Below are positions 2,780-32,000 of a stretch of 32,000 nt of DNA, piece by piece. The DNA lies in NCBI GenBank assembly GCA_001695645.1, contig LVZN01000019.1, positions 2,667-34,666 of the forward strand. The letters are read 5' to 3'. This DNA is from Erysipelotrichaceae bacterium MTC7. GTDB taxonomy: Bacteria > Bacillota_I > Bacilli_A > Erysipelotrichales > Erysipelotrichaceae. A program made the position numbers and the translations under genes. The number at the start of each line of letters is the position of its first letter. The first letter of the stretch is position 1. Under the pieces are notes generated by a model. That model was not told the DNA's origin, did not search any database, and worked only from the letters and a program-made list of their open reading frames with translations.

Positions 2780-2782
2780 GAA

Positions 2783-3152: not shown

Positions 3153-3156
3153 GAAT

Positions 3157-5403: not shown

Positions 5404-5409
5404 AAGAAA

Positions 5410-5450: not shown

Positions 5451-5455
5451 ATTGT

Positions 5456-7288: not shown

Positions 7289-7382
7289 AAGTTACCTCTT
7301 TTTCACTTCATTATAGTATAGGAAAGCAACGAGTGTAAAGTGAAAATGAAGTGAAAAGTTATGTTTCATATACAAGAACAAT

Positions 7383-7406
7383 AAAAAAAGATGTTCGGAA
7401 ACACCT
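7383..7406 (-). terminator. Terminator of the second LCP gene
   Basis: A-run then gatgtt-cgga-aacacc hairpin (one A.C mismatch). On the - strand this reads GGTGTTTCCGAACATC followed by TTTTTTT. Confidence 0.55.
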
Positions 7407-7425
7407 TTTTGTTTGTATATTCGAA

Positions 7426-8994: not shown

Positions 8995-9101
8995 ACGAAC
9001 ACCTCGGTAAGATTATATATCATATTCAATAAAAAATCTTGTAGTTTTAACAAAAATGATGCACCCTTTTGTAGTATAATGTTTGCAGTGAGGTAAAAAC
9101 T

Positions 9102-11249: not shown

Positions 11250-14364
<3,115 letters not shown>

Positions 14365-14374
14365 AAGGAGCATT

Positions 14375-14665
14375 ATGGAAAAAGATAAGGCATATTTTCG
14401 TAAGTTAGCAAATCAAATTATGTTTGATTTGAGCGATGAAGAACTAGAAGAACTGAAAAAAGAATTCGAAGTAACGATTCGTAAAATGGACTTACTTGAT
14501 AAAATTAATACTGACGATGTTAAAGAAATGGTATATCCATTTGAAGGGGAAACGCATTTTCTACGTGAAGATGTTGTTGATCGTGTCGTAACACAAGAAG
14601 AAGCATTAGCAAATGCTCCAGAAGTAAGAGAAGGGCAAGTGTTAGTGCCTAAGGTGGTGAAATAA
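14375..14665 (+). CDS. gatC: Asp/Glu-tRNA amidotransferase subunit C
   Basis: 96 aa, immediately upstream of and overlapping gatA. Typical acidic GatC sequence. Confidence 0.9.
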   Translation: MEKDKAYFRKLANQIMFDLSDEELEELKKEFEVTIRKMDLLDKINTDDVKEMVYPFEGETHFLREDVVDRVVTQEEALANAPEVREGQVLVPKVVK

Positions 14666-16077: not shown

Positions 16078-16078
16078 G

Positions 16079-17503: not shown

Positions 17504-17530
17504 TAAAATAGGTAAGACAAGGAGAGTTAC

Positions 17531-18130
17531 ATGGCGATACTCAAACAATCAAACAAAGGAAATAAAAAAACAAAACATCGACCAAACTGGTTGTTGCGAT
17601 TCACGATTGTGGTTGTGGCAATTCCATGTTTGATTCTTGCTTTTGTATTACTTACATCGTTGGGTTCTTCCAACAAACCGGTCGTTGGTGATCGTTTTGA
17701 AGGTCAACTCAACCCAAAAATTGAAAGTGGTAAAACAAAGGAAATCAAGGCTTTACTTGCATATCCTGAAGCAGAAAGCGTATCTGTCAATCTTAAAAGT
17801 GCAACGTTACGCATCACCATCAACTGTCTTGATGATGTGAATAACGATCAAATTGCAGCTATTGTGAATGACGCATATGCAAAAGTAGATTCTGTATTAC
17901 CCATTGGTACGTATTTCACCAACAAAGATAAAACAAAAATGTATGATTTAGAAATACAGGTTTATAATTATCTACCTGATGAAAGTCGACCAACAAACAT
18001 TCATTACGTACTTGTAAAGAATGCTAGTGCAGAAGCACAACATGTAGATAATGTCTCAGCTGCTAAAGATCAAGAAGTCGCAGACAAACTACAATCATAT
18101 CCTAAACAAGGAGAAACCGTCGGGCAATAA
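17531..18130 (+). CDS. Membrane-anchored hypothetical protein
   Basis: 199 aa with a basic N-terminus, one TM helix (LLRFTIVVVAIPCLILAFVLL) and RBS AAGGAGAG. No recognisable domain. Confidence 0.6.
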   Translation: MAILKQSNKGNKKTKHRPNWLLRFTIVVVAIPCLILAFVLLTSLGSSNKPVVGDRFEGQLNPKIESGKTKEIKALLAYPEAESVSVNLKSATLRITINCLDDVNNDQIAAIVNDAYAKVDSVLPIGTYFTNKDKTKMYDLEIQVYNYLPDESRPTNIHYVLVKNASAEAQHVDNVSAAKDQEVADKLQSYPKQGETVGQ

Positions 18131-18144
18131 TGTCCGACTTTTTT
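18119..18144 (+). terminator. Weak terminator/attenuator hairpin before the methyltransferase gene
   Basis: gtcgg(g)c-aataat-g(t)ccgac followed by TTTTTT. The stop codon lies in the loop. Confidence 0.45.
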
Positions 18145-18155
18145 GGAGGAATGCA

Positions 18156-19472
18156 ATGAAAGAAAAAATACGTTTAACTGGTACGGTTATAGATTATACA
18201 TACGATGGAATGGGTGTTGTTAAAGTGGATAACTTCACGTATTTTGTACGTGGGGTTTTGTTGCATGAAGAAGTTGAATTTCTTGTTTTAAAACGCAATA
18301 AAAACTTAGGATATGGAAAAGTGGAACGAATTATAAAAGAAAGCGAACATCGTATTATACCTTCATGTCCATACTTTCCAAAATGTGGAGGATGTCATAT
18401 CATGCATATGGATGAACAAGCCCAATTGGACTTCAAACATCGCATTGTAAAACAAAATATCAAGAACATTGGAAAACTAGACATTGAAGTGCGCAAACCA
18501 CTTGCTAGTAATGCCTATCATTATCGCAACAAAGCGCAGTTTCCTGTACAAGCACAACCATTTGCAATGGGGTTTTATCGACAACGTTCCAATGATTTGG
18601 TCGATATTCAGACCTGTCTTGTACAAAGTGAATTAATCGATACCATTTACAAAGAATTACGTGCAATCAAAGATACAAGTTTTGTCGAAGATGTGCGTCA
18701 CGTGTTAATTAAACATGCATTTGTCAGTGGGGAAGTCATGGTTGCCTTTATCATGCGGAAGGATCATAAAGATGAAATTGCTGCATTTATGAAACCTTTA
18801 CTAGATAGATATCCGATCGTTTCTTTACTACAAAACATTAACACAAGAAATGATAATGTGATTTTAGGTGATCATATTGATGTGATTGATGGAAAACCAT
18901 CCATTGTTGAAGAACTTGATGGATTACAATTCCAAATTTCATTACATTCATTTTTTCAAATCAATCCAAAGCAAACCATTCATCTATATGATGAAGCAAT
19001 CAAAGCAGCGAATATCACCAAAGACGATACCGTGATTGATTTATATTGTGGTGTTGGAAGTATCACCTTGTTTCTTGCTAGACAAGCAAAGCATGTAACT
19101 GGAGTAGAAATCGTAGCTCCTGCAATTGAAAACGCCAAAATCAACCAACAGTTGAATCAAATAGACAATGTTTCATTTATTTGTAGTGATGCAGGTACAT
19201 ATGCAAGTAAAGTTGTCGCAAGTAAAAACTATCCGGACGTCATATTTGTGGATCCACCACGAAAAGGATTGGATGCATTAACCATTGAAAGTACGGTAAA
19301 AATGCAACCAAGAACAATCGCATATATTTCATGTAATCCAGCAACACTAGCAAGAGATATTGCGATATACAAAGAACATGGATATACGTGTGAATATGTA
19401 CAACCTGTAGATATGTTTCCAAACACGTATCACGTTGAGACGGTAGTATTGATGTCAAGGGTTGATAAGTAA
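18156..19472 (+). CDS. 23S rRNA (uracil-5-)-methyltransferase, RumA/RlmD/RlmCD family
   Basis: TRAM domain; Fe-S cysteines CPYFPKCGGCHIMH; SAM motif DLYCGVGSI; DPPRKG; nucleophile ISCNPATLARD. I prefer the ATG at 18156 (GGAGG RBS) over the ORF-track start at 18051, which overlaps the previous gene. Confidence 0.85.
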   Translation: MKEKIRLTGTVIDYTYDGMGVVKVDNFTYFVRGVLLHEEVEFLVLKRNKNLGYGKVERIIKESEHRIIPSCPYFPKCGGCHIMHMDEQAQLDFKHRIVKQNIKNIGKLDIEVRKPLASNAYHYRNKAQFPVQAQPFAMGFYRQRSNDLVDIQTCLVQSELIDTIYKELRAIKDTSFVEDVRHVLIKHAFVSGEVMVAFIMRKDHKDEIAAFMKPLLDRYPIVSLLQNINTRNDNVILGDHIDVIDGKPSIVEELDGLQFQISLHSFFQINPKQTIHLYDEAIKAANITKDDTVIDLYCGVGSITLFLARQAKHVTGVEIVAPAIENAKINQQLNQIDNVSFICSDAGTYASKVVASKNYPDVIFVDPPRKGLDALTIESTVKMQPRTIAYISCNPATLARDIAIYKEHGYTCEYVQPVDMFPNTYHVETVVLMSRVDK

Positions 19473-19502
19473 GCGTGTAATAAGATAAGTAAATAAAGGC
19501 TT

Positions 19503-19552
19503 TCCGTGATTTGAGGTCTGGTTCTAAGCCGGAAGGATAATCACGGATTTTT
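19503..19552 (+). terminator. Possible terminator of the methyltransferase gene
   Basis: tccgtgatt / aatcacgga 9-bp stem with a long 27-nt loop, followed by TTTTT. Confidence 0.4.
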
Positions 19553-19576
19553 GCTTTAAGGGAAGTTATCCAAGAT

Positions 19577-19659
19577 TGGTGAATTTGAAAGTCTGTCCAT
19601 GGAAAGATTTATTGGGGTGGTGAGTTGATAAAATGGTTGGCAAAATAATGGTGAGTTGA
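19577..19659 (+). repeat. Three direct copies of TGGTGA(A/G)TTGA at the core/island junction
   Basis: tggtgaatttga 19577-19588, tggtgagttga 19618-19628, tggtgagttga 19649-19659. The last two extend to tggtgagttgaNaNNatgg. Confidence 0.5.
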
Positions 19660-19750
19660 CATGATGGATAGAATAAATATAGTATCAATCTCTAGTGTCT
19701 AAGAGTATATTTTTTTAACTCCACTCTTCACTTATCTATCAAGTCTTATA

Positions 19751-19779
19751 TTGACAAAAGGACATCAGGGTGCTAAACT
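19751..19779 (+). promoter_or_regulatory. Sigma-A type promoter of the methylase gene
   Basis: TTGACA (19751-19756), 17-nt spacer, TAAACT (19774-19779). Confidence 0.55.
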
Positions 19780-19791
19780 AAATTAACAAGG

Positions 19792-21822
19792 ATGAAAGGG
19801 GATGTGAATTTGAGATTTATTGGATCGAAATCTAATTTAATTAACGAGATAGATAAGATAGTAAAAAAGAATATTCATGGAGATGAAGAAACATTTTTAG
19901 ATTTGTTTGCAGGGACAAATATCGTCGGAGAATACTTCAAAAAGGATTTTACGATTTATTCTAATGATATATTATATTTTAGCTACGTCAACGCAAAAGC
20001 TGTAATTGAAAATAACGGGAATTTGACATTTTCAAAGTTAAAGTTAGCGGGTATTGAATCTCCGCTAGACTATTTGCAGGAAAATGCCGAAAGATATATT
20101 CAGAATAGTGTCGTAGGTTACTATGAGCAAAACTATACGCCTACAGGGGGGGCGATGTATCTCACCGTACAAAATGGGAAAAGAATTGACTATATTAGGG
20201 ATAAGATTGATGTATGGAAAACTGAGAAGTTGATAACAGATAATGAATTCTACTATTTACTTTCATCGTTAATAGAATCTATCCCTTATGTTAGTAATAC
20301 TACGGGAACATATGGTGCGTATCTAAAACATTGGGATAAGAGAGCACTTAAATCATTAGAGCTTATACCTTTAGTTGTTCAGGATAACAAAAAAGAGAAC
20401 AAAGCATATAACGAAGATGCTAATATACTAATTAATAATAAAAAAGTGGATATTGCGTATATTGATACACCATATAATAATAGGCAATATGCTTCTAATT
20501 ATCATTTGCTAGAAAATATTGCTAAAAATGATAAACCAGAATTAAATGGCAAGACCAGAATTTTTGAATGGAGCAATTTAAAAAGTGATTACTCTATTAA
20601 GAGAAAAGCATTGACAGCAATGAAGGACTTATTAAATAATCTACAAGCTAAGCACATAATTTTGAGTTATAACAATGAAGGTATCATACCAGAGGATGAA
20701 TTAATATCATTGATGAAAGAAAATTCTTTTGATGGGACAGTTCAGATAGAAAGAATTCCGTATCGGAAATACAAGTCAAAGAAACCTTCTAAAAGCGATG
20801 AATTATATGAAATTCTTATTTATGTTCAGAAGGAGGCAATTACTAATAAAAAGAGTAAAAGTATGTACATTGCTAAATCAAAACCAAGTAAATGGATTGG
20901 AGAAAAGCAGCGTTTAATCAAAAGTCCTCTAAACTATATAGGTGGAAAGTTCAAGTTGCTAAAGCAGATTCTTCCGTTGTTTCCCTCTGAGATAGATACG
21001 TTTGTTGATCTATTTAGTGGGGGGGCTAATGTTGGAATCAATGTGGAAGCTAAACATTATATTTTTAATGATATGAACAATCGGATTAATGAGATGTTTC
21101 GCTATTTTGCAAAACAAGAAGTAGAATATCTAATAGGTAGTATACGAAAGAGAATTGCTGAATATGACTTAACTAAGGAAAATGAGGAAGGGTATTTAGA
21201 ATTTAGAAATCAATATAATAAAAATCCAAATCCATTAGATTTATATGTGTTGGTATCGTTTAGTTATAATTATCAGTTTCGTTTTAATAACTCCATGGAA
21301 TTTAACAATCCATTTGGACGCAACAGGAGTAGGTTCAGTGATAATATGGAAAAAAACTTAAGATTATTTGTCAACAAACTACACGAAATAGATGCCGAAT
21401 TTACAGATGAGTTTTTCAATGAATTAGATTTATCTTGGTTGGGTGAAAAGGATTTTGTTTATTTAGATCCTCCGTATTTAATAACTACTGGTAACTATAA
21501 TGATGGAAACAGAGGGTTTGTAAACTGGGGTATAGAACAAGAACGTGATATGTATAAATTGATGGACAAACTATCAAGGCAAGGAGTGAGGTATGCCCTT
21601 AGTAATGTAATAGAACATAAAGGTAAAAAAAACGAGCTACTTAAGGAATATATAAATACATCAAACGTAAGAGTCCATTATTTAGAATATAACTATAATA
21701 ACTCGTCTCATAACTCCAAGGGAACAGGGAGTACCGAAGTATTAATTACGAACTATGAGACAAGCAATTTCGATTTACTAACAGATAGAATTGGTTCTAT
21801 TCGAAAAATTGCAAGTTCATAA
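19792..21822 (+). CDS. Fused two-domain N6-adenine DNA methyltransferase (M.FokI-like, Type IIS)
   Basis: Two Dam/D12-class modules. The N-module has RFIGSK, FLDLFAGTNIVG and DTPY (nt 20464-20475). The C-module has LNYIGGKFKLL, FVDLFSGGANVG and DPPY (nt 21466-21477). The real start may be the TTG at 19810, which has a better RBS (AAAGGGGA). Confidence 0.85.
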   Translation: MKGDVNLRFIGSKSNLINEIDKIVKKNIHGDEETFLDLFAGTNIVGEYFKKDFTIYSNDILYFSYVNAKAVIENNGNLTFSKLKLAGIESPLDYLQENAERYIQNSVVGYYEQNYTPTGGAMYLTVQNGKRIDYIRDKIDVWKTEKLITDNEFYYLLSSLIESIPYVSNTTGTYGAYLKHWDKRALKSLELIPLVVQDNKKENKAYNEDANILINNKKVDIAYIDTPYNNRQYASNYHLLENIAKNDKPELNGKTRIFEWSNLKSDYSIKRKALTAMKDLLNNLQAKHIILSYNNEGIIPEDELISLMKENSFDGTVQIERIPYRKYKSKKPSKSDELYEILIYVQKEAITNKKSKSMYIAKSKPSKWIGEKQRLIKSPLNYIGGKFKLLKQILPLFPSEIDTFVDLFSGGANVGINVEAKHYIFNDMNNRINEMFRYFAKQEVEYLIGSIRKRIAEYDLTKENEEGYLEFRNQYNKNPNPLDLYVLVSFSYNYQFRFNNSMEFNNPFGRNRSRFSDNMEKNLRLFVNKLHEIDAEFTDEFFNELDLSWLGEKDFVYLDPPYLITTGNYNDGNRGFVNWGIEQERDMYKLMDKLSRQGVRYALSNVIEHKGKKNELLKEYINTSNVRVHYLEYNYNNSSHNSKGTGSTEVLITNYETSNFDLLTDRIGSIRKIASS

Positions 21823-21833
21823 TAAAAGAGTTT

Positions 21834-21874
21834 AAGTGCACAAAACTTGAGATAATCCCGAAGTCTGTGCACTT
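21834..21874. terminator. Bidirectional terminator between the convergent M and R genes
   Basis: aagtgcaca / tgtgcactt 9-bp stem, extended by actt/aagt, flanked by T-rich sequence. Confidence 0.65.
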
Positions 21875-21884
21875 AATTTATTTG

Positions 21885-23630
21885 TCAATTATTAACCCAA
21901 AGAATCTCTTTATTATCAATATAGTCTGAGATTCTATTAGCATCGAGTTCGCCTCTTAGTACAGCATTAGCGCCAAGTAGCAGCTGCTCAACGTTTAATG
22001 CCGCCCCTTTTGTATTAGTTCGATTATACGTGCTTTCTATCTGTTCTTGAAATCTTCCTATAAATTTACTAGAGACCCACATAAAATAATACTTTTCTTT
22101 TTTAATACTTGACGGGAAGTTATTCCACCATTCTATAGGATTACGTGTTGTATCTCTATATTGATTATCTTCAATATATCTTACCATTTCATCTTCTTGA
22201 CTAATTGATTTGCTATATCCAGTACTATATGCCTTCGTGTCAATGATCATTCCAAAGTTAGCATTAAATACAAGGCAATCTGGTTTTCTCCCGCCGCCTA
22301 GCAAAACAGATTTTAAACCATAAACCTTTTTGAAAATTTCTGCAGTAATAATTTCGAAATCTCTATTTCTATTTCCATCAAAAGCAATTTCGAGCAGTTC
22401 AATATATTTTGCGGGTAAATCTGTTTTATTCATAAATTCAGCTTTACGTTGCTCTGATGCTTTATCTTTTAATTCCTTTGTGAGATTTAGTTTAGGTATT
22501 TCAAAATCAACTAGTAAGTCCTTCAACTCAATATTAGGGCCGTTCTTCTCAATACGTATTCCAAAAGTGTTTAACCCTTGAATATCATTTTCAATAATTT
22601 TAGGATCATCATTGAAGCCCAGTTGCTGAAGTTTTTCCATTAAAACTTTAAATGACTTTGTTTCCTGCAAGAATTTCAATATATAGGAGCGTCTAGAGCG
22701 AATGTAATTTCTGTTTTCGCCCTCAACGGCTAAAAATTCCCAGGTTAGATATTTGGTAATACGCATATTTTTGGAGCTGCCATGTGCTTTTCGTAGTGCG
22801 TGGCTTCCCCGTCCTGTAATAGAAAACTCTTGGAAACCTGCTTTTTTTCCGTTAATCGTGTTAACAACAGTGCTATTTTTTTGCACAAAGCCAACTTTTT
22901 CTAACCAGGTCGATATCATACGTGCATATTTATCACTAGTACCTTCAATATCTGACTTGATTTTTTTCTGTTCTTCATTTGTTCCACTGTTAAACCAGTC
23001 GAACATTAAGCTTTCATCATAGGATGTAAAACCTTTTTCACCAGAAAATCCTAATTGATTACCTATATAGAATTTACTAACTGGTCTAGTAGTTGATTCT
23101 AATATATTTAAAACTTGTGTTGCAGGAGGATAGCTTAAAAGAGAATTTCGGAGAATATTAATTTCATGTTCAGAATCATCAATAGATCGCGAAAATTCCC
23201 TACCCAAGGGCGTAATTGAGCACATATCCGTTTCGCGATTGTGTTTTACAAAATTTAGACTGAGAGCCCATCTTAAGTACCCATCAGATGTCCAATTATC
23301 AGTCCAAAACTTGCCTTTAGTCTTAGAGGATTGTGGTAATATTGTGATTTGTATTAACGCATCTGCAACAGCTTCAGATCTCGATTTAGGGGATCTTCCA
23401 TGTTTGTTTTTTGAAGTACCTACGAGATCTAGATATGAGAATTCTTCAATTTTTCGAGTGAACTTATTTAATAAGTCAGATTTTATATCATCAAAATAGA
23501 TATAGCGTGAAATCAAATTGCTTTTGAGGTTTTCATAATGTACAGAAGTATTGTCAAAAATCTGAACCACTAGTTTTAATTTTTTGAAGTCAGATGGATT
23601 CTGAACCCAACCATATGTGCGTGAAATCAT
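21885..23630 (-). CDS. FokI-like Type IIS restriction endonuclease
   Basis: 581 aa; FokI is about 580 aa. Blocks I recall from FokI are present. RTYGWVQNP matches RTFGWVQNP, TSDGYLRWA matches SSDGFLRWA, GTSDKYARMI matches GSSDKYARMI. YIELLEIA is shared, and the cleavage-domain motif GGGRKPDCLVF...MIIDTKAY gives D451, D464, K466 against FokI D450, D467, K469. RBS AAGGAGAT. Confidence 0.9.
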   Translation of the reverse strand: MISRTYGWVQNPSDFKKLKLVVQIFDNTSVHYENLKSNLISRYIYFDDIKSDLLNKFTRKIEEFSYLDLVGTSKNKHGRSPKSRSEAVADALIQITILPQSSKTKGKFWTDNWTSDGYLRWALSLNFVKHNRETDMCSITPLGREFSRSIDDSEHEINILRNSLLSYPPATQVLNILESTTRPVSKFYIGNQLGFSGEKGFTSYDESLMFDWFNSGTNEEQKKIKSDIEGTSDKYARMISTWLEKVGFVQKNSTVVNTINGKKAGFQEFSITGRGSHALRKAHGSSKNMRITKYLTWEFLAVEGENRNYIRSRRSYILKFLQETKSFKVLMEKLQQLGFNDDPKIIENDIQGLNTFGIRIEKNGPNIELKDLLVDFEIPKLNLTKELKDKASEQRKAEFMNKTDLPAKYIELLEIAFDGNRNRDFEIITAEIFKKVYGLKSVLLGGGRKPDCLVFNANFGMIIDTKAYSTGYSKSISQEDEMVRYIEDNQYRDTTRNPIEWWNNFPSSIKKEKYYFMWVSSKFIGRFQEQIESTYNRTNTKGAALNVEQLLLGANAVLRGELDANRISDYIDNKEILWVNN

Positions 23631-23654
23631 TTCATTATCTCCTTACTTAGTAAA

Positions 23655-23870
23655 TTATAAACTATTATCTTTTATCGTCTCCATAATATCTTCAAGCTTG
23701 CAATCAAGTGCTTCACATATTTTAAGCAGAATATCCGTAGTGATATTCTCGCCTTTACCAAGCTTTGCTATAGATGCAGAGCTTATACCGGTGGCATTCT
23801 TCAAATCTTGTTTATTCATATTTTTATCAATTAGCATTTTCCAGAGTTTGTTGTAGCTAATTCTGAGCAT
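23655..23870 (-). CDS. Small XRE/Cro-type HTH protein (candidate R-M controller or regulator of the neighbouring system)
   Basis: 71 aa; KNMNKQDLKNATGISSASIAKLGKGENITTDILLKICEALDC is a canonical HTH_XRE. RBS AAAGGAGAT. Lies 24 nt upstream of the nuclease start. Confidence 0.85.
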   Translation of the reverse strand: MLRISYNKLWKMLIDKNMNKQDLKNATGISSASIAKLGKGENITTDILLKICEALDCKLEDIMETIKDNSL

Positions 23871-23899
23871 ATTTCTATCTCCTTTATTGGATTTCCATC

Positions 23900-25729
23900 C
23901 TAATTGCTATATACATCATGTAAAAAACCATAACGACTTTCTTTGTACTTACTTATATATTTGCCATGTGTAAATTCTATTACCTTAGCATCTCTAGCCT
24001 CATAATCTAAATCTGGAAGATCCTTTGTGTTTTCTACAACTATCATTTGTCCTTCGGATTGATTGTCAATAAAGTATTGGAATAGGGCGGTTCTCATGCT
24101 TGTAGGTGCATTATCATCGACGCCTTGATCAAGACCAAGCAAAGGTGTATCCACCACAAAAATTCCTGGTCTATGTACAGCATCTTCGTGTAAATACTTT
24201 CTAAAAGTTAACCCTACAATTGTATTGATAAAAGCCCAGTAACCCTTACCATGACTATCTTCTTTTGCATAGCCATTTATTTCTAAATCAAATGTACCCA
24301 TGTTGAAATGAGCCGTATTCAAATTTTCATATTTGCAGTCAACTAGAATTGAATATGCTATTTCATCTATACGTGTATTAAAATCGACAGGGAAGTGTTC
24401 TTTTGGTTTAAATTTTGGGTTATCCGAATCATCACTTTCTTGCTTTTGTAATTCAACAATCCACTCTTGTGAAACGCTTTGCAATACAGTTGATTCTTGT
24501 TGTAATTGTATATAAGAGCGATATTGTTGTATTCCTTCTCTTAGTTTATTAGATTGCGGAGTAAGTTCAGTTTCGATTAATTTATCTATCCCCGATCTTT
24601 GTCTTTCAAGATGATCGATTTTTTCACGAACTTCATTTAATGATGAAACGACATCTTCTTCACTCTCAGACAAGCCCTGCAATTGAGTAATGATGCGATT
24701 CAGTTCAGCTCTTGATGCTTTAATGTATGATTTTCTCTCTGCTGGTTGCATATTACCATCACAAAAAGGACATTTTTTATTTTTATCAACAGAGTGTAGA
24801 TGTACCTCTCCATCTACAATAAATGATAATCTTTTTATATCAGCTGTATATTGGCTTCGTAGCGATTGAAAGTGAGAATAAGTAACTTGGTTTTCTGCTT
24901 CTTTTTCCTTTAAATCTAGTAAAGTACCTAGTAAATCCTTACTCTCTTCTGTAGCAGCCGCAATAGCAGCTTCAGTTTCAGAAAGATTGTCAATTAGCTT
25001 TTGCATTTCATCTTCCACATCTAAATCGCTATAAGTAGACAATGCTTTTTGTAGCTCTTCTCTTTTTTTAGACATCTGAGAAATTCTACCGTTTACAAAT
25101 TGGCGAACAGCATCTTTTTTAGCTTTGCTGATTTCATCCTTGTCATGTTCCTCCATATCTGGGTATTCATTTCCAGTGAGAAGATATAGAAGGGATGCAA
25201 AAAAATAAGGATTCTGAGTAGGCGATGAAGGTAAAAGCACCGATTTCGGATTTTCAATTTCTTGTTCTTTTAACCAAAACAATCCCATAAGAGTTTTCCA
25301 TGAGAGGCGTTGTCTAGCAAAATCTTGATTTTTTATTATCATTGGCAGTTTTTTAATACCAATCAATTTAAGCCAAAGTTCATTTAAAACAGGATTTTTA
25401 TTCCCGTTACTCTTATATTTAACGTCATAGTCACCACCATCAATTGAGTTAATTTGGCTGACCACGTTTACTATATTCTTTCCAACTATCCGAGAGAGAT
25501 GAATAGTGCCTTCTGGGGTATTAATATCTAGGCTGACGCTATCATATCCTGTTTGTTCTTTTTCAAAAGGCTTTTCAATTACACCCATAGCAAACTGGAT
25601 GCATTTTAATATGCAGGTCTTTCCGGAATCGGAAACTCCACAAATGATATTTAATCCTTTATCAAAAGTTACAATAGCAGGGGACTTCCCTGTGCCGGTT
25701 GCTGTGACTTTAGAAATATAAAACGCCAT
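23900..25729 (-). CDS. Rad50/SMC-like ABC ATPase with coiled-coil insert and CxxC hook (LmuB / ABC-3C ATPase-like)
   Basis: Walker A GVSDSGKT (nt 25616-25639). Charged heptad-like region about res 195-430 with CPFC at res 320-323 (nt 24761-24772). C-terminal half-head SHGKGYWAF...GIFVVDTPLLGLD...QMIVVEN. RBS AAGGAAGGAG. Confidence 0.8.
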   Translation of the reverse strand: MAFYISKVTATGTGKSPAIVTFDKGLNIICGVSDSGKTCILKCIQFAMGVIEKPFEKEQTGYDSVSLDINTPEGTIHLSRIVGKNIVNVVSQINSIDGGDYDVKYKSNGNKNPVLNELWLKLIGIKKLPMIIKNQDFARQRLSWKTLMGLFWLKEQEIENPKSVLLPSSPTQNPYFFASLLYLLTGNEYPDMEEHDKDEISKAKKDAVRQFVNGRISQMSKKREELQKALSTYSDLDVEDEMQKLIDNLSETEAAIAAATEESKDLLGTLLDLKEKEAENQVTYSHFQSLRSQYTADIKRLSFIVDGEVHLHSVDKNKKCPFCDGNMQPAERKSYIKASRAELNRIITQLQGLSESEEDVVSSLNEVREKIDHLERQRSGIDKLIETELTPQSNKLREGIQQYRSYIQLQQESTVLQSVSQEWIVELQKQESDDSDNPKFKPKEHFPVDFNTRIDEIAYSILVDCKYENLNTAHFNMGTFDLEINGYAKEDSHGKGYWAFINTIVGLTFRKYLHEDAVHRPGIFVVDTPLLGLDQGVDDNAPTSMRTALFQYFIDNQSEGQMIVVENTKDLPDLDYEARDAKVIEFTHGKYISKYKESRYGFLHDVYSN

Positions 25730-25734
25730 ACAGG

Positions 25735-26217
25735 TTACTCCTTCCTTAACGATTTAGACGCTTCTCTACTAATCAAATTAAGAAGTTCTTTTTCGTTTTT
25801 CGAATCCATATAAATAATAGCTTTGTGTGCATACAATCTATATTCATTGGCATAATCAGAAGCTAGGGAACTGCATAAGGCAAGTCCACGTTCTGTAATA
25901 GAATATATAAAGCCATCATTTGAATAAGAAACCCTAACCAAGTTTTCTAAAACAAGCTGTTTAATAGCTTGTTGTGATAATGATCTTCTCGCAGAAAATT
26001 CAGAAAAACTAAATTCATTATCACCATGAAGATTGCTATTTGATAATCCAAATTCTTTTGAGTAATTTGAAATAAAATCTGCTGTTACCAGCTTATCAAT
26101 TGTAAACTTATTATTATTAGACAATGATAAGACAAGTAGTAATCTCATTGATATTTCAAATTCAGTATTGAAAACTTTATCATTCATCTTCATCCACCCA
26201 CCGAACGCAACCATCAT
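25735..26217 (-). CDS. Small winged-helix-like middle component (ABC-3C MC / LmuC-like position)
   Basis: About 150-160 aa between the other two genes; QAIKQLVLENLVRVSYSNDGFIYSITERGLAL resembles a wHTH recognition helix plus wing. The likely true start is the ATG at 26187 (MNDKVF...), which overlaps the upstream stop within ATGAATGA. Confidence 0.6.
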   Translation of the reverse strand: MMVAFGGWMKMNDKVFNTEFEISMRLLLVLSLSNNNKFTIDKLVTADFISNYSKEFGLSNSNLHGDNEFSFSEFSARRSLSQQAIKQLVLENLVRVSYSNDGFIYSITERGLALCSSLASDYANEYRLYAHKAIIYMDSKNEKELLNLISREASKSLRKE

Positions 26218-27181
26218 TTACCAATAGATGACAGGTTCCTTTCTTTTCTTTTGGGCCTACTAGATTTTGGATATTATCAACAACAGATGTGGTAGAGCAA
26301 TCGACTACCTTTTTCATAACGGCTAACAGCCTTTTGTATCCATCATCGTAATCATCCCATAAAGTATCTTTAATGTAATCATGTGTTTCAGACTTCCACT
26401 TCTTAGAATGTTCTTCGCCTTTATCTATAGATTCTCGAATAAAGCGGTCAATACGCAATGCACTATAATAATTGATTCGTTGATCAGAGAAGTTTCTTTT
26501 GAATTTTGTAGGTAACGAGTCTAAATCAGCTTTTGTCAAATTACCAGATTTTATAGCTTCTGCATAAGCTGCAAGAAGCTCACTAACATATTTCTCTTCT
26601 TCAGGAGCAATGTCTTGTGGAGGCTCGATCTCCTTAGGAATAGATATTTCAACATTACCTATATGTAATTTTCCATCAGATTCGTCATAATAAATAGTTT
26701 GAGAAGGTAAAGATGCTAATTTAGAAGGGGAAGTTGCATTATTAGAAACATTGATGCTAGACGATTCTCTGCCTTCATAAATGTCATCTAGAATTTGAAG
26801 AAACAAATCAGCACAAGCATATCCTAAAACTTCATCGGGATTGAAGCCTGGAATCATTTTTTTGATTTCATCCTCAATAGCCATCTGATTATGATCGTTT
26901 AAATTACTTATGTAATTTGCAAATTTATCTGTATCTTTACGACTAATAACTACATGTACCTTTTTGGGGTTCAAAGGATTACTACCCTTTATCAATCGAT
27001 CTAATGAGTCTGGTTTGAGAACACCAAAAGGGTTATATCTATCATTCTCAGACAATTTTATTTCTTCCACCGTTTGAGGGGCTCTCATGATATTGTCAAA
27101 AAGCGACAGAAAAAACTCATATGGTTTATATGATGTACCACTGTGTTTATAAAGTATATTCGCAAATTCACTAAAGAGCAT
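26180..27181 (-). CDS. Putative effector/sensor subunit: unassigned N-terminal domain plus ABC-3C-type C-terminal coupling domain (LmuA position)
   Basis: 333 aa, RBS GGAGGTG. The C-terminal ~140 aa (RINYYSALRIDRFIRE...DDGYKRLLAVMKKV...KKGTCHLLVNDGCVRWV) resemble, from memory, the conserved C-terminal domains of ABC-three-component effector proteins. No catalytic motif is recognisable in the N-terminal ~135 aa. Confidence 0.55.
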   Translation of the reverse strand: MLFSEFANILYKHSGTSYKPYEFFLSLFDNIMRAPQTVEEIKLSENDRYNPFGVLKPDSLDRLIKGSNPLNPKKVHVVISRKDTDKFANYISNLNDHNQMAIEDEIKKMIPGFNPDEVLGYACADLFLQILDDIYEGRESSSINVSNNATSPSKLASLPSQTIYYDESDGKLHIGNVEISIPKEIEPPQDIAPEEEKYVSELLAAYAEAIKSGNLTKADLDSLPTKFKRNFSDQRINYYSALRIDRFIRESIDKGEEHSKKWKSETHDYIKDTLWDDYDDGYKRLLAVMKKVVDCSTTSVVDNIQNLVGPKEKKGTCHLLVNDGCVRWVDEDE

Positions 27182-27200
27182 TATCTGCCACCTCCAACTA

Positions 27201-27240
27201 TATTTCCGAATCTTTCCGAACCTCTCCGAGTCCTTCCTTA
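27201..27240. repeat. Four degenerate tandem 10-nt repeats in the leader of the three-gene operon
   Basis: tatttccgaa / tctttccgaa / cctctccgag / tccttcctta. On the mRNA strand this is a ladder of GGAA/GGAG purine blocks with 10-nt phasing, ending in the RBS. Confidence 0.6.
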
Positions 27241-27258
27241 ATGGAAGGTCTTTTTTTT
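27232..27258 (+). terminator. Hairpin plus T8 (terminator-like on the + strand)
   Basis: ccttcc-ttaat-ggaagg followed by tc and TTTTTTTT. There is no + strand gene upstream, so its role is unclear. Confidence 0.4.
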
Positions 27259-27429
27259 ATACAATTTTATTAGTGATTGAGTGATATTGAAGAAGAAATT
27301 GCAAGCAAAAAAGACTGCTTAAATTATATCACGAAAAATCACACATTACCAGAAGAAAAATTCACAAAAGCAAATATTTTATCATTTATTGTTGAATTTA
27401 TCTTCAAAAATGGAAAGGAGGTAGTGCAG

Positions 27430-27573
27430 ATGGCCAAACGTAATACGAAGCAAACATCAAAAAGAGTTGCGTCAAAAGCAAGCAAAATTCTTAACGATGG
27501 ACGCTACAGTAAGAAATCCAAGTCAGTGGCTGGCAGTGCTTTAAGTCAAACTAGACCAAGCAAGAAAAAGTAA
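27430..27573 (+). CDS. Small lysine/serine-rich basic protein (47 aa), function unknown
   Basis: ATG at 27430 preceded by GGAAAGGAGG: MAKRNTKQTSKRVASKASKILNDGRYSKKSKSVAGSALSQTRPSKKK. The ORF track extends it to a TTG at 27277, which lacks an obvious RBS. Confidence 0.5.
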   Translation: MAKRNTKQTSKRVASKASKILNDGRYSKKSKSVAGSALSQTRPSKKK

Positions 27574-27693
27574 TTTTCAGAACAGATGATAGGTAGCGAC
27601 AGATTTGAATAATCAGCCTACTTATCCTCCCTAAGGGAGAAATCTATCCAGAGCGGTTATCGCTCAACAAAATCAATCTCAAAGTCCTAGTGC

Positions 27694-27791
27694 GCATACG
27701 GACGGCGGGATGCATAAGAGTTCAGAACACAGTAATAAAGACTGTGTTTGGAATGAAGATGCACCCACCGTTATTTCGTGTGCCCTTTTTT
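27694..27791 (+). other. Long three-tier GC-rich hairpin ending in a U-tract (structured RNA or elaborate terminator)
   Basis: Outer stem gcatacg / cgtgtgc. Middle stem acggcgggatgca / tgcacccaccgt (one bulge, one mismatch). Apical stem aacacagt-aataaag-actgtgtt. Then ccTTTTTT. Confidence 0.4.
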
Positions 27792-27801
27792 AGGACAAGC
27801 G

Positions 27802-27835
27802 GAGTCTGTGGTCATCTTCACCGCAGGCTCTTTTT
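27802..27835 (+). terminator. Rho-independent terminator just upstream of the sigma-like gene
   Basis: gagtctgtggt-catcttc-accgcaggctc (11 bp including 2 G.U pairs) followed by TTTTT. Confidence 0.6.
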
Positions 27836-27875
27836 GTATTCCGCCGCCCAATGACTAGGCGGGAAGGAATACTTT

Positions 27876-28418
27876 ATGAAGATTCGAGTTTTATATGAAG
27901 ACAACATTAAAAACGGTCACAAGAACTACACCACAATTGAAATTCCAGATGGAGATTACAGCGTCATGCTGGATATCGACTATGAGCAACGTCTTGCAGA
28001 AGCAAAGCCTGAAAAGAAGGCAGAGGTGAAACGCTGCGAGACTCTACAAGAAATGTTCGACCTCATGAACAACAAGGAATATAACCATTGGCGCCGCTAC
28101 CATAGGCACCTTGGTAATACCAAGACACCTTATCGAAAAGATGATGAAGTTGAAATTGATGTCATGGATACTTTCGCTGATAACTCCCAGGAGATAGAAC
28201 GCAATCACCAAGATGAGTACGAATCTGTCTGCCAATGGATACGCACCGTTCTTGGCAAAAAGCAGGACTGGGCAGATATGTTCATTGCAGTACGGATTGA
28301 CGGTATGTCGATTCGAGAATATGCCAGTTCCATCGGTGTTAATGAAAACAATATTACTCAGAAATTAAAGCGAGCAACCAAGAAATTAGAACAAGAATAT
28401 AAAAAACGTCAGATTTGA
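27876..28418 (+). CDS. Sigma-70 region-4-like HTH regulator of a mobile element
   Basis: 180 aa. The C-terminus MSIREYASSIGVNENNITQKLKRATKKLEQEY resembles sigma region 4. The architecture recalls the small sigma-like proteins of clostridial integrative elements. Confidence 0.55.
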   Translation: MKIRVLYEDNIKNGHKNYTTIEIPDGDYSVMLDIDYEQRLAEAKPEKKAEVKRCETLQEMFDLMNNKEYNHWRRYHRHLGNTKTPYRKDDEVEIDVMDTFADNSQEIERNHQDEYESVCQWIRTVLGKKQDWADMFIAVRIDGMSIREYASSIGVNENNITQKLKRATKKLEQEYKKRQI

Positions 28419-28482
28419 CCTTCTCCCAAGGCTACTAGGTAGGAGGTCAAGACCTCCAAAAAAACACAAGGAGGTAATTCGA

Positions 28483-29265
28483 ATGGAATTACAAGTTTAC
28501 AAAAATGCAGAGTTTGGCTCTGTACGTACTACAACGATTGCTGGTCAACCTTATTTTGTAGGTAAGGATGTAGCTGATATTCTCGGCTACTCAAATACTC
28601 GCAAAGCTTTGATCGACCATGTTGACAAAGAGGACAAGGATGACGTAACGATTCGTGACGCCATCGGAAGAAATCAAACGATGACTGCTATCAATGAATC
28701 CGGTCTTTATAGCCTCATCCTCTCAAGCAAGATGCCGAATGCTAAAAAGTTTAAGCGATGGGTGACAAACGAAGTCCTCCCTGCTATTCGGAAACATGGA
28801 CTTTATGCAACAGATGATTTAATCGCAAATCCAGACCTTGCCATTGCTGCATTTACTGCATTAAAAGAGGAACGTGAAAAAAACAAGGAACTGATGGCGG
28901 CCGTTGCGATTGGTCAGCAGCAGATTGCCGAGATGAAACCCAAGGCTACTTACTATGATGTGGTTCTTAAATGCAGGGATGCAGTCAATATCTCTGTGAT
29001 TGCCAAAGATTACGGCTGGAGTGCCATGCGCATGAACGAATACCTTCATGAAAAAGGCATTCAGTACAAACAAGGAACTATTTGGCTTCTCTATCAAAAG
29101 TATGCTCCAAATGGATATACCAAAACCAACACTCATATTTACGAAGATAGTAAGGGTATCCAACATACGAAAGTGCACACCAAGTGGACGCAAAAAGGCA
29201 GACTCTTTATCTATGAACAGTTAAAAGCCGACGGTATTTACCCGCAAATTGAGATGGAGGTGTGA
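28483..29265 (+). CDS. Bro-N / KilAC-domain phage antirepressor-like protein
   Basis: N-terminus FGSVRTTTIAGQPYFVGKDVADILGY...ESGLYSLILSSKMPNAKKFKRWVTNEVLPAIRKHG is the Bro-N domain. The C-terminus is KilAC-like (ISVIAKDYGWSAMRMNEYLHEKGIQY). Confidence 0.85.
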   Translation: MELQVYKNAEFGSVRTTTIAGQPYFVGKDVADILGYSNTRKALIDHVDKEDKDDVTIRDAIGRNQTMTAINESGLYSLILSSKMPNAKKFKRWVTNEVLPAIRKHGLYATDDLIANPDLAIAAFTALKEEREKNKELMAAVAIGQQQIAEMKPKATYYDVVLKCRDAVNISVIAKDYGWSAMRMNEYLHEKGIQYKQGTIWLLYQKYAPNGYTKTNTHIYEDSKGIQHTKVHTKWTQKGRLFIYEQLKADGIYPQIEMEV

Positions 29266-29266
29266 T

Positions 29267-29701
29267 ATGGGAATCAATATGAAAAATGCAGAAGGGTATT
29301 ATGACCCAACTCCCCATAAAGCACTTAGCAATATATCCCGTGAGGAAAAGGCAGCAGCAAAAGCTGCCTTTAAGCCCCTTGTCTATATTTGCTCTCCATT
29401 TAGTGGCGATATTGATAACAACAATAAGCGCACACGAGTATTTTGCCGTTTTGCTTTAGATAAGGGCAATATTCCGCTTGCTCCTCACCTTCTATTTCCA
29501 CAGTTTATGGATGACAGCAATGAGAAAGAACGTGAGCTCGCTATTTTTATGGATATTATCCTGATGGGCAAATGCCAAGAGGTCTGGGTTCTAGGTGATG
29601 TTATCTCAAGAGGCATGAGTATTGAAATTGAAAAAGCAAAGAAACGCAGACAGCCGGTCAGATACTTTAATAAAGATTTCAAGGAGGTAGAGTCTCTATG
29701 A
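29267..29701 (+). CDS. DUF4406 / nucleoside 2-deoxyribosyltransferase-like protein
   Basis: LVYICSPFSGD...APHLLFPQFMDD...VWVLGDVISRGMSIEIEKA resembles this Rossmann-like family. Preferred start is the ATG at 29267 after GGAGGTG. The stop overlaps the next start (ATGA). Confidence 0.5.
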   Translation: MGINMKNAEGYYDPTPHKALSNISREEKAAAKAAFKPLVYICSPFSGDIDNNNKRTRVFCRFALDKGNIPLAPHLLFPQFMDDSNEKERELAIFMDIILMGKCQEVWVLGDVISRGMSIEIEKAKKRRQPVRYFNKDFKEVESL

Positions 29702-32000
29702 AGATAGCATATGGCAACAGCCGAATGGATAAGAAATGGAAAAACACAGACATCAGCTGGGAGGACTTTTGCTCCAGGGTTAAGACCACACAGCGTACTA
29801 CTGAAACCGTAGAAGAATATCGGAAAATGAGAAAAGGTGGTCAAGATTCCATTAAAGATGTCGGTGGTTTTGTTGGGGGTCACTTAAAAGATGGCAGACG
29901 TAAAAAAGGAAATGTTCTATCTCGTTCTATGCTCACCCTTGATATGGATTATGGCACAAGTACTATCTGGGAAGAAATCTCTACCTTCTTCCCTTATCAG
30001 TGCTGTATTTATTCCACGCATAAGCATACCCCGGAAAATCCAAGGCTTAGGCTGATCATTCCTCTCTTACGTGATGTGGGAGAGGAAGAGTATGCTGCTG
30101 TTAGTCGCATGGTCGCAAAAGAAATAGGCATCGACCTTTTTGATGATACGACCTATGAACCGGAACGATTAATGTATTGGCCGTCTACCTCAAGAAACGG
30201 CATTTTTGTGTATGAAGAGAAAGATGGCTCCATTCTTGATCCTGATGAATTTCTAAATAAATACGATGATTGGCGAGACACCAGTACTTGGCCCGTATCC
30301 TCTAGGCAGTCAGAAGTACTTGATCGCTCATTAAAGGAACAAGCCGATCCACTTTCAAAAGAGGGAGTTATCGGTACTTTTTGTCGTAGCTACTCAGTAA
30401 GCACTGCAATCGATACGTTCTTAAAGGATATATACGAGCCTTCAGCAATAACTGGTCGCTATGATTATATCCCGGCTGATTCTAGTGCCGGGGTTATCCT
30501 CTATGATGATAAGTTTGCCTATTCCCACCACGCAACAGATCCTGCAAGTGGGCGGCTTCTTAATGCTTTTGACCTTGTTCGCATTCACAAGTTTGGCAAT
30601 TTAGATGATCGAGCGACAGAAAGCACACCTCCAAGCAAACTACCATCCTTTATCAATATGTGCGAATTTGCTATCCAAGACGATAAAGTAAAAGCACAGT
30701 TTACGAAAGAGCGGATGGAGCAGGCAACGATTGATTTTACGGAGGATAATTGGCAGATAGCACTGGAACTAGATAAACAAGGAAAGATTAAAGACACCTT
30801 AGATAATATCGTTCTCATCATCCGCAATGATTCAGAACTAGAATCCATTGCTTTTAATAAGCACCGTGATGGAATCGATGCAAGAGACGGACTGCCATGG
30901 GAACAGATGAAGGGCGGCTGGAATGATTCAGACAATGCGGCCCTTAAAGTTTATCTATCTAATAAATACGGCATCTACTCCCCAACCAAAACAAAGGACG
31001 CAATACTAGCAGTCGCAGCAGAGCGATCTTATCATCCCATCAAGGAATACCTTGATCATTTATCAGAGTGGGATGGAATTGACCGCGTTGAAACCTTGTT
31101 GATTGATTATTTTAATGCAACAGATAATTCCTATACCAGAGCCGTTACTAGAAAAATGATGGTGGCAGCAGTCGCTAGAATTGTTGATCCTGGTACTAAA
31201 TTCGACAGCGTTTTAATTCTAAATGGACCACAAGGAATCGGTAAGTCTACCTTCTTTGCAAAGCTTGCAGGCGATTGGTTTTCTGATAGTTTGACACTTA
31301 CTGATATGAAAGATAAGTCAGGACCAGAAAAACTCCAAGGTTACTGGATCTTAGAATTAGGCGAACTAGCTGGAATGCGAAAGACTGATGTGGAGGTTGT
31401 GAAATCCTTTATTTCAAGATCGGATGATAAATACCGTGCCAGTTATGGGGTGAATGTTGAAAGCCACCCCCGTCAATGTATCATTGTCGGCTCTACCAAT
31501 GCAGAAAGTGGATTTTTGCGAGACATCACGGGTAACCGAAGATTCTGGCCAGTGCGTATTAGTGGTGACGGTAAAAGAAAAGCATGGCAGATGTCCGTAT
31601 ACGATGTAGAGCAGATTTGGGCAGAAACTTTGGTGCTGTATGGCCGAGGTGAAAAGCTCTATTTAGAGGGCAGTGATGTAGAGTTGGCAACGAATGAGCA
31701 GGCAGATGCCATGGAGAGTGATGAGCGAGAAGGGCTTGTTCGCACTTACCTCGATACACTTTTACCCGATGACTGGAATGACCTGTCCTTATACGAGCGA
31801 AGAAACTACCTAAACGGTAGTGAATTTGGTGGGGAATCCCGTGTCGGTACGGTTGAACGTACGCTTGTTTGCAATATGGAAATTTGGTGCGAATGCTTTG
31901 GAAGGGATGCCTCCGCCATGAAGCCTGCGGACTCCTATGCCATTGCAGGCATTATGAAAAAGATTAATGGGTGGAACAAGTACCAAGGGAACAAGAACGG
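29698..32000 (+). CDS. VirE-family primase-helicase (N-terminal primase-like region plus P-loop NTPase), 3' partial
   Basis: Open frame from ATG 29698 to the window end, so it is absent from the ORF track: MKIAYGNSRMDKKWKNTDISWEDF... Walker A LILNGPQGIGKSTFFAKL, Walker B YWILELGELAGM, then RASYGVNVESHPRQCIIVGSTN, typical of virulence-associated protein E replicases of phages and islands. Confidence 0.85.
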   Translation, partial: MKIAYGNSRMDKKWKNTDISWEDFCSRVKTTQRTTETVEEYRKMRKGGQDSIKDVGGFVGGHLKDGRRKKGNVLSRSMLTLDMDYGTSTIWEEISTFFPYQCCIYSTHKHTPENPRLRLIIPLLRDVGEEEYAAVSRMVAKEIGIDLFDDTTYEPERLMYWPSTSRNGIFVYEEKDGSILDPDEFLNKYDDWRDTSTWPVSSRQSEVLDRSLKEQADPLSKEGVIGTFCRSYSVSTAIDTFLKDIYEPSAITGRYDYIPADSSAGVILYDDKFAYSHHATDPASGRLLNAFDLVRIHKFGNLDDRATESTPPSKLPSFINMCEFAIQDDKVKAQFTKERMEQATIDFTEDNWQIALELDKQGKIKDTLDNIVLIIRNDSELESIAFNKHRDGIDARDGLPWEQMKGGWNDSDNAALKVYLSNKYGIYSPTKTKDAILAVAAERSYHPIKEYLDHLSEWDGIDRVETLLIDYFNATDNSYTRAVTRKMMVAAVARIVDPGTKFDSVLILNGPQGIGKSTFFAKLAGDWFSDSLTLTDMKDKSGPEKLQGYWILELGELAGMRKTDVEVVKSFISRSDDKYRASYGVNVESHPRQCIIVGSTNAESGFLRDITGNRRFWPVRISGDGKRKAWQMSVYDVEQIWAETLVLYGRGEKLYLEGSDVELATNEQADAMESDEREGLVRTYLDTLLPDDWNDLSLYERRNYLNGSEFGGESRVGTVERTLVCNMEIWCECFGRDASAMKPADSYAIAGIMKKINGWNKYQGNKN

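Follow-up and report, generated by a model that had tools for sequence, protein, structure and literature searches.

An unannotated all-alpha domain in the effector position of a short Lamassu system recurs at the N-terminus of NACHT, STAND and Hachiman proteins

The 32,000-nucleotide stretch of Erysipelotrichaceae bacterium MTC7 analysed here (assembly GCA_001695645.1, contig LVZN01000019.1, positions 2,667–34,666 of the forward strand; named as the window) contains a short Lamassu/ABC-3C defence system, and the N-terminal 136 residues of its LmuA protein form an unannotated domain that is referred to below as the N-domain. The lmuA gene heads a tight co-directional set in the order lmuA-lmuC-lmuB-helix-turn-helix (HTH)-FokI-like, and the gene of a double D12 methylase converges on this set from the plus strand. 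The features of the locus are as follows.

27181..26180, minus strand: lmuA, 333 amino acids, ATG start with GGAGG nine bases upstream
26774..27181, minus strand: LmuA residues 1-136, the unannotated all-alpha N-domain, eight helices
26702..26773, minus strand: LmuA residues 137-160, variable disordered linker rich in S, N and P, recognized by low predicted local distance difference test (pLDDT) scores, poorly aligned columns and the ratio of nonsynonymous to synonymous substitution rates (dN/dS)
26606..26701, minus strand: LmuA residues 161-192, conserved beta segment, recognized by strands, near-invariant columns and dN/dS
26180..26605, minus strand: LmuA residues 193-333 and stop codon, CTD6 docking domain of ABC-3C/Lamassu effector components (Pfam PF20282)
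25735..26217, minus strand: lmuC, ABC-3C middle component MC2, 160 amino acids as listed (Pfam PF20288)
23900..25729, minus strand: lmuB, short SMC/Rad50-like ATPase, 609 amino acids (PADLOC LmuB PDLC03867, Pfam AAA_23)
23655..23870, minus strand: Xre-type HTH protein (HTH_26, VanU-like), 71 amino acids, 29 nucleotides downstream of lmuB (Pfam HTH_26, E 3.5e-20)
21885..23630, minus strand: FokI-like type IIS restriction endonuclease, 581 amino acids, with all four FokI Pfam domains
19792..21822, plus strand: fused double D12-class adenine methyltransferase, 676 amino acids (Pfam MethyltransfD12 in two stretches; PADLOC MTase_II, E 1e-272)

The 333-amino-acid protein was aligned over its full length (1-333) with the PADLOC LmuA model PDLC03857 (E 9e-124), by which the LmuA family as a whole is already covered, and Pfam placed CTD6 on residues 195-328 (E 7e-40), the part that had been described from the letters alone as a conserved-looking C-terminal domain. 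LmuC matched Pfam MC2 PF20288 (E 2.5e-49) and PADLOC LmuC PDLC03875 (E 2e-58). LmuB matched PADLOC PDLC03867 (E 2e-256) and Pfam AAA_23, and contains a Walker A motif GVSDSGKT at residues 31-38, a CPFC zinc hook at 320-323 and a Walker-B-like IFVVDTP at 523-529. Like that of LmuA, the PADLOC matches of LmuC and LmuB are full-length. These matches, together with the LmuB motifs, show that the protein stands in the LmuA position. Thus, the preliminary description of this DNA, which had put the open reading frame 27181..26180 in the LmuA slot, was confirmed by Pfam, PADLOC and the gene order A-C-B, and its assignment of the product as the effector component of a Lamassu (ABC-3C) system was supported by the CTD6, MC2 and PADLOC matches. 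The protein is the LmuA effector component of a short Lamassu/ABC-3C system, which belongs to the CTD6-MC2 lineage and shares with it the gene order lmuA-lmuC-lmuB, CTD6, MC2 and the short zinc-hook SMC-like ATPase (Krishnan et al. 2020; Millman et al. 2022). The listed lmuC frame overlaps lmuA by 38 nucleotides (26180-26217), and because its homologues are 149-153 amino acids long, the true start of lmuC is probably Met9 or Met11 (26193 or 26187), which would leave a short overlap with the lmuA stop typical of translational coupling.

Behind the N-domain, a linker had been drawn at residues 138-195, of which only the first part stood. Residues 137-160 behaved as a disordered linker, with pLDDT below 50 in the predicted model at residues 143-160, poorly aligned columns and dN/dS of 0.3-0.5. 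Residues 161-192, which had been counted in that linker, read YYDxxDGKLHIG..EISIPKE..PP in near-invariant columns with short predicted strands at 163-166, 171-174 and 177-180. Their dN/dS of 0.01-0.10 makes them the most constrained stretch of the protein, and they are retained in the CTD6 protein P0077, whose N-terminus is unrelated. This near-invariance, the low dN/dS and the persistence in P0077 argue that the beta segment belongs to the docking half and not to the linker. A single PHROG match of LmuA, spanning residues 102-329, also corresponds to the docking half. When the full-length model was compared with the PDB by Foldseek, weak matches to the cryo-EM LmuA chains 9nxx, 9ny1 and 9hr5 were obtained (E 0.04-1.7), a likeness that in the model would be owed to the C-terminal domain (CTD).

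The N-domain itself gave no match to any known family. Residues 1-136 had no Pfam or NCBIfam match at E<=0.1, a Pfam scan of 55 diverse members of the N-domain family at E<=10 returned no usable family, and neither did a PHROGs search. Searches of the PDB sequences at E<=10, made with the single sequence and with profiles of 20 and 55 sequences, returned noise only. The AlphaFold2 model built on the 55-sequence alignment was very confident (pLDDT 96.7, predicted template modelling score (pTM) 0.89), with helices at 3-13, 20-31, 38-45, 57-65, 72-80, 84-92, 96-109 and 119-135. Against 350,542 PDB chains, Foldseek found no match to this model at E<=0.001, the best one having E 0.37 and a template modelling score (TM) of 0.2. 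The same fold was found in BFVD in three uncharacterised "Siphoviridae sp." proteins (TM 0.66-0.72).

Conservation was computed on 114 family members less than 50% identical to one another. The conserved positions are M1, F3, S4, F6, F23, L27, N50, P51, G66, D83, F87, C123 and F127 (M1 80%, F3 82%, S4 70%, F6 81%, N50 88%, P51 94%, D83 76%, C123 91%), which include the motifs M1-x-F-S-E-F at the start, N50-P51 and C123-A-D-L-F and are mostly residues of the hydrophobic core. Among these columns there was neither a conserved His nor an acidic triad, and no PD-(D/E)xK, HNH, GxSxG, HEPN, Sir2, TIR, hydrolase or protease pattern. No fold or motif match was found to the known defence effector folds (PD-(D/E)xK/Cap4/Mrr, HNH, HEPN, Sir2, TIR, Ser/Cys protease and lipase). 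As family, PDB, fold and conserved-motif searches were all without a match, the earlier statement made by eye, that this domain has no nuclease, hydrolase, Sir2, TIR or protease motif, survives at each of these levels; the remote-homology and Foldseek check on the domain model, by which a known effector family might have come to light, gave no confident match. The domain is acidic overall, with an isoelectric point (pI) of 5.0 and a net charge of +1.9 in segment 46-96 between flanks of -2.9 and -4.4. Membrane insertion was considered and rejected, as no 19-residue window exceeded a Kyte-Doolittle value of 1.45 in the 55 members.

Decay of the gene was equally looked for in relatives. Among 13 relatives translated from genome loci, the LmuA frame was intact in all, and dN/dS was 0.06-0.19 for the N-domain compared with 0.04-0.08 for CTD6. 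The intact frames and the low dN/dS rule out that lmuA is a pseudogene, and these values indicate that the N-domain is under purifying selection.

Among 1.84 billion representative proteins, a profile of the N-domain matched 410 at E<=0.001 and 167 at E<=1e-10, where each count is of representatives of clusters at 50% identity. The domain started at residue 1-3 in 282 of 313 complete domains (90%) and was internal in none of them. Its C-terminal partners were CTD6 and CTD11 of ABC-3C, NACHT with SNaCT14, nSTAND3/6 with tetratricopeptide repeats (TPR), NACHT with WD40, NB-ARC with TPR, HamA (P0174), TIR with vWA (P0171), Sel1 repeats and several unannotated C-termini. More than 110 NACHT-SNaCT14 proteins of about 800 amino acids bear it. 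The NACHT NTPase P0076 and P0075, whose C-terminus is unknown, aligned with LmuA over residues 1-136 only, at 47-50% identity. A survey for recurrence of the domain with other defence ATPases, which had been proposed as a check, thus found it on NACHT, nSTAND3/6 and NB-ARC proteins.

The N-domains of the NACHT proteins P0078, P0224 and P0076 were about 47% identical to Lamassu N-domains and at most 29% identical to those of other NACHT proteins, so the domain has evidently been swapped between Lamassu LmuA and NACHT sensor types. Furthermore, Lamassu and N-domain-NACHT proteins share the same slot in related prophage-like elements. The PADLOC HamA model PDLC00151 aligned to the C-terminal half of the N-domain in P0174 and P0092, so the HamA subfamily of this model appears to include the domain. 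Similarly, PDLC03857 matched every N-domain protein tested whatever its architecture. Since the LmuA and HamA models both extend into the N-domain, PDLC03857 scores N-domain-only, NACHT, HamA and TIR-vWA proteins at E 1e-15 to 1e-28 and could mis-annotate such proteins outside Lamassu as LmuA.

Two further kinds of N-domain protein were observed. The stand-alone protein P0170 (140 amino acids, locus L040, 3929-4351) lies in a conjugative-element-like context with an FtsK/DUF87-like gene nearby, and its gene is convergent with a 119-amino-acid Xre HTH gene. The N-domain-CTD11 proteins (P0126, P0098, P0125, P0137, P0138 and others) have a middle CxxC...CxxC region resembling an HNH zinc ribbon (alignment columns about 205-290), in which the catalytic His is replaced by Q, N, T, S or D and the second His is present in two of the nine members carrying the region. 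The ribbon looks like an inactivated HNH, and by its sequence the N-domain-CTD11 protein is another LmuA without evident enzyme.

What relatives carry in the place of the N-domain is informative as to its role. In the plasmid-borne CTD6 proteins of Citrobacter and Sinorhizobium, GxGDxGIDIxGF...DN[YH]QCKHY stands upstream of CTD6 and by eye reads as a D...QxK restriction-endonuclease signature of Mrr type; Pfam made no call on this motif within these proteins. The presence of an Mrr-like motif at this place in the proteobacterial relatives suggests that the N-domain has replaced a probable nuclease in the Lamassu lineage of the window. A related arrangement was seen in a Citrobacter IncC/IncP plasmid (NZ_CP029730; locus L043, 2355-4435), where a translationally coupled separate Mrr_cat gene precedes a CTD6-MC2-ATPase system whose CTD6 protein has the endonuclease-like motif as well; this may be a four-gene Lamassu variant. 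The N-terminus is the accepted output position in STAND proteins, according to the literature, and is also the output position of extended HamA proteins (10.1101/2025.09.03.673762).

On these grounds, we tentatively take the N-domain as a non-catalytic output domain that is activated by clustering and acts by binding a cellular target, a reading that we consider a real possibility though not one to be relied on. It is drawn from the effector slot, the exchange between scaffolds, the strict N-terminal anchoring, the lack of catalytic features and two published precedents. In Cap4-type Lamassu, LmuB2-LmuC keeps bound LmuA monomeric, and once DNA ends are sensed, LmuA is released and tetramerises via its CTD (PMC12663957); in bNACHT11, killing follows from the clustering of a short N-terminal element that is non-enzymatic and bears a conserved motif at Met1 (10.1101/2024.12.17.629029). 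In addition, HamA scaffolds bear effectors fused at their N-terminus (10.1101/2025.09.03.673762). By analogy with the solved Cap4-type Lamassu, LmuB and LmuC would hold LmuA as an inactive monomer until foreign DNA ends are sensed, upon which LmuA would be released and oligomerise through its CTD, so clustering the N-domains. The clustered domain would then bind a cellular target, which may be a protein, DNA or a membrane surface, without catalysis, and this binding would arrest or kill the infected cell. A free N-terminus may matter, to judge from the exclusively N-terminal location and the conserved start M-x-F-S-E-F, much as in the short non-enzymatic effector motif of bNACHT11. The pair of options given in the preliminary description, a new effector fold or a non-enzymatic adaptor, remains correct, as neither sequence nor fold searches gave an enzymatic signature.

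The known systems show how far these precedents reach. The Vibrio cholerae DdmABC/Cap4-type Lamassu (PDB 9NXX, 9NY1, 9NY5; PMC12663957) has the same three-component logic and its activation route served as the template here, but in its tetramer the Cap4 nuclease N-domain makes a pocket that cleaves DNA, whereas no nuclease fold or catalytic residues were recognised in the LmuA of the window. Likewise, the named Lamassu effectors are Cap4, Mrr, PDDEXK, HNH, Sir2, protease/hydrolase, lipase, FMO and amidase, whereas this LmuA bears an unannotated helical domain. Among the clade-14 short NACHT proteins, for example bNACHT11 (Kibby et al. 2023; 10.1101/2024.12.17.629029), a large NACHT-SNaCT14 set bears the N-domain, and bNACHT11 has a non-enzymatic N-terminal death effector. 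The latter is a disordered extension of about 45 amino acids with the motif MDPIT, whereas the N-domain is a folded domain of 135 amino acids starting with M-[TL]-F-S-[ED]-F; the two Met1-anchored starts differ, with no sequence relation shown. Hachiman HamA with N-terminal effectors (trypsin-HamA and Cap4-HamA; 10.1101/2025.09.03.673762) finds its parallel in the N-domain-HamA protein P0174, but there the fused domain is a known enzyme and in the trypsin form has a partner MBL next door, whereas the N-domain is without such a partner.

Several observations weigh against a clustering-activated binding output. The N-domain shares a polypeptide with TIR and is also found on a HamA that keeps its G-E-S-K motif, an arrangement as compatible with an accessory or adaptor function as with that of an effector. 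Stand-alone proteins of 140 amino acids in mobile elements would be odd for a toxic domain, and an acidic domain without a hydrophobic segment does not suggest action at membranes. The absence of catalytic residues was inferred from conservation, and C123, N50 and D83 could form an unrecognised site. No experiments on phage or plasmid defence by this Lamassu subtype were found in the literature searched. A broader formulation, which we regard as rather unlikely, is that the N-domain represents a new class of non-enzymatic immune output, namely a helical folded module, its N-terminus free and conserved, that would act only once clustered by one of at least four unrelated sensor scaffolds and would kill or arrest by binding and not by catalysis; the scaffolds would be Lamassu LmuA, short NACHT and other STAND proteins, and HamA. 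If true, the domain would correspond in bacteria to the CC/MADA outputs of plant NLRs or the HeLo-type ones of fungi. In one variant, the output would be HTH-derived and DNA-binding and would couple defence sensors to regulation of the prophage-like element that carries them.

The N-domain could instead be an adaptor resembling the effector-associated domains (EADs), inactive alone and, once exposed or clustered, recruiting or activating a separately encoded effector by homotypic or heterotypic contact. We think this unlikely, for although the domain is small, helical, non-catalytic and always N-terminal, sits on sensor NTPases and docking scaffolds (STAND proteins, ABC-3C docking domains) as well as on effector-bearing proteins (TIR-vWA P0171, HamA P0174) and exists in stand-alone form, the partner gene expected of an adaptor was not met with. 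Such a distribution is reportedly the one described for EADs by Kaur et al. 2020. When the window and 44 fetched loci of together about 594 kb were scanned in six frames with a hidden Markov model (HMM) of the N-domain, exactly one N-domain frame was found in each of 40 N-domain-bearing loci and none elsewhere in the window; a cis pair of EAD type was rejected accordingly, there being no second copy in the window or the fetched loci. Furthermore, no extra gene was conserved beside lmuA, lmuC and lmuB across 12 loci, and the cassette stands alone on an Enterococcus faecium plasmid. The domain had no sequence relation to any family of Pfam, which we take to include EAD1-11: the LmuA of the window had no Pfam match to these, and no EAD family was among the matches listed for the 55 members (E<=10). 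EAD1-11 and the bacterial Death-like domains (Kaur et al. 2020, 2021) are, like the N-domain, small helical N-terminal modules on NTPase sensors and effector-bearing proteins, but their defining cis pair was absent in all 40 loci and Foldseek found no Death-like fold match for the N-domain in the PDB.

A DNA-binding output is a still weaker candidate. Residues of about 54-92 would in that case derive from an Xre-type HTH, and clustered N-domains would bind DNA to block replication or transcription of the invader or to switch genes of the host prophage-like element. This would agree with the weak Pfam matches to HTH_3 in 5 of 55 members (E>=0.03) and to HTH_26 in one of 55 (E 0.012), but the latter value was the best that Pfam gave, and a PDB profile search with residues 46-96 found nothing. 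Aligned by hhalign with the local HTH_26 family, residues 54-83 covered helix 3, the Gly loop and helix 4 in a plausible register, but with E 0.029-0.049 and a probability of 1-2% the alignment was not significant. The best, also non-significant, Foldseek match in the PDB was an Xre antitoxin. In an HTH, two helices are joined by a tight turn of 3-4 residues; in the AlphaFold2 model, a loop of 11 residues (46-56), placed where the tight turn would be expected, leads into the putative recognition helix 57-65, after which come G66 and helix 72-80. Segment 46-96 is the only net-positive part, but the domain as a whole is acidic. The lmuA gene lies between a sigma-70-region-4-like gene (27876-28418) and the Xre HTH in the regulatory region of the element, but some loci lack the HTH_26 and sigma-like neighbours. 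The stand-alone N-domain gene adjoins another Xre HTH, and a catalytically dead-looking HNH-like zinc ribbon follows the domain in the CTD11 proteins; both points would be in keeping with DNA binding. It is more improbable again that the N-domain is an enzyme of a so far unrecognised all-alpha class, working as a catalytic effector with the near-invariant C123 and perhaps N50 and D83. The strong conservation of C123, N50, P51 and D83 across the 114 divergent members and the location in a slot normally held by enzymes would speak for it, but neither a His nor a second nucleophile partner is conserved, the conserved positions lie mostly in the hydrophobic core, C123 in the amphipathic last helix is probably buried, and the PDB holds no enzyme of similar fold. 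Finally, the suggestion in the preliminary description that the neighbouring FokI-like nuclease supplies the killing has next to nothing to commend it. The gene is co-directional and lies about 270 nucleotides downstream of lmuB with no predicted terminator between, but it has its own cognate double methylase, and no homologue of either gene was found beside any of 21 other genome-collection loci of this Lamassu family. Both were also absent from the annotated stretches of further loci, which hold other restriction-modification (R-M) types or none. As a complete R-M pair missing from all 21 loci, the FokI-like endonuclease and its cognate methylase are self-contained, independent cargo.

The system itself is of known type, since the LmuA family is in PADLOC and Lamassu with unnamed or "lost" effector domains are noted in the literature (PMC12663957). 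What appears to be new is that the N-domain is recognised as a module in its own right, widespread, strictly N-terminal and common to Lamassu, NACHT/STAND and Hachiman proteins, one that replaces what reads as an Mrr-like nuclease and has no match among solved folds. No description of it as a separate module was found in the literature searched, which excludes the ABC-3C paper of Krishnan et al. 2020. An NCBIfam scan at E<=0.1 gave no SMEK match for LmuA, a provisional result that takes NCBIfam to include a SMEK model. The SMEK domain is named as a short-Lamassu effector, and a "clade O" Lamassu as one that seemingly lost its effector domain, in PMC12663957; the N-domain LmuA family may correspond to the "SMEK" type or to "clade O" of that work. 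Lamassu, bacterial NLR-like NACHT and Hachiman are among the commonest anti-phage systems, and their action is understood only for outputs that are familiar enzymes. Neither Pfam nor NCBIfam annotates the N-domain family, which numbers at least 410 clusters at 50% identity, lies in the output slot of all three system types, is exchanged between them, is under selection and gives no hint of catalysis. If the domain is an effector, it would be a portable, proximity-triggered toxic or arrest module and offer a direct handle on non-enzymatic bacterial immune outputs; if it is an adaptor, a partner remains to be found.

The HTH_26 gene is the neighbour most often met with. Among the 20 genome-collection loci holding lmuB, 18 have it behind that gene; L015 and L020 lack it, as does the E. 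faecium megaplasmid (L039). It was considered as a conserved fourth gene of the system and rejected, being absent from these three and marking the edge of variable cargo. Because it is missing from some loci and sits at that edge, HTH_26 is treated as linked to the element and probably not as a core Lamassu part. It may be an operon regulator, a C-protein for the downstream R-M system or part of the element backbone. Its start overlaps the lmuB stop in L029. The HTH_26 proteins (65-71 amino acids; L023 3299-3502, L030 9359-9562 and L035 9419-9622) follow both N-domain Lamassu and N-domain NACHT genes, the copy downstream of the N-domain-NACHT gene in L023 being 72% identical. They are 69-98% identical even where LmuA identity is only 40%, and HTH_26 is the boundary beyond which the cargo, consisting of various R-M systems, varies.

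Within the window, positions 1-19472 are chromosomal, encoding PGI, a P-type ATPase, two LCP proteins, PcrA, LigA, GatA/B and an RNA methyltransferase of RumA type, and positions 19473-32000 belong to a prophage-like element, with the junction near 19.5 kb. The Lamassu and FokI-like R-M genes lie at the end of this element, beside the RumA-type gene (18051-19472). Since rumA homologues were also found a few kilobases beyond HTH_26 in seven other loci, the integration site appears to be conserved.

Full-length LmuA homologues, 74 in number and 40-99% identical, were found in Bacillota. An LmuA of 99.7% identity is encoded at the end of Streptococcus phage Javan630, and copies with 99-100% identity are present in Allofustis, Clostridiales, Clostridiaceae and Anaerovoracaceae assemblies; such near-identity in distant Bacillota indicates recent transfer, judging from the sequences. 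One 2.8-kb contig with a near-identical LmuA was binned as Methanolobus, probably by a binning error. In a gene-by-gene comparison of 12 loci, lmuA, lmuC and lmuB alone were present in all, and in the E. faecium megaplasmid they stand alone among insertion sequence (IS) elements. The check for decay found most relatives intact, as reported above, and decayed copies in three of 22 loci (L017, L021 and L022). In Lachnoclostridium phytofermentans KNHs2131, lmuB is broken into five frames (L017, 11419-13247), and in a second L. phytofermentans copy (L018) lmuA was matched only from residue 24. The lmuA remnants are the last 31 codons at 10001-10093 of L022 and a fragment of 150 codons in L021.

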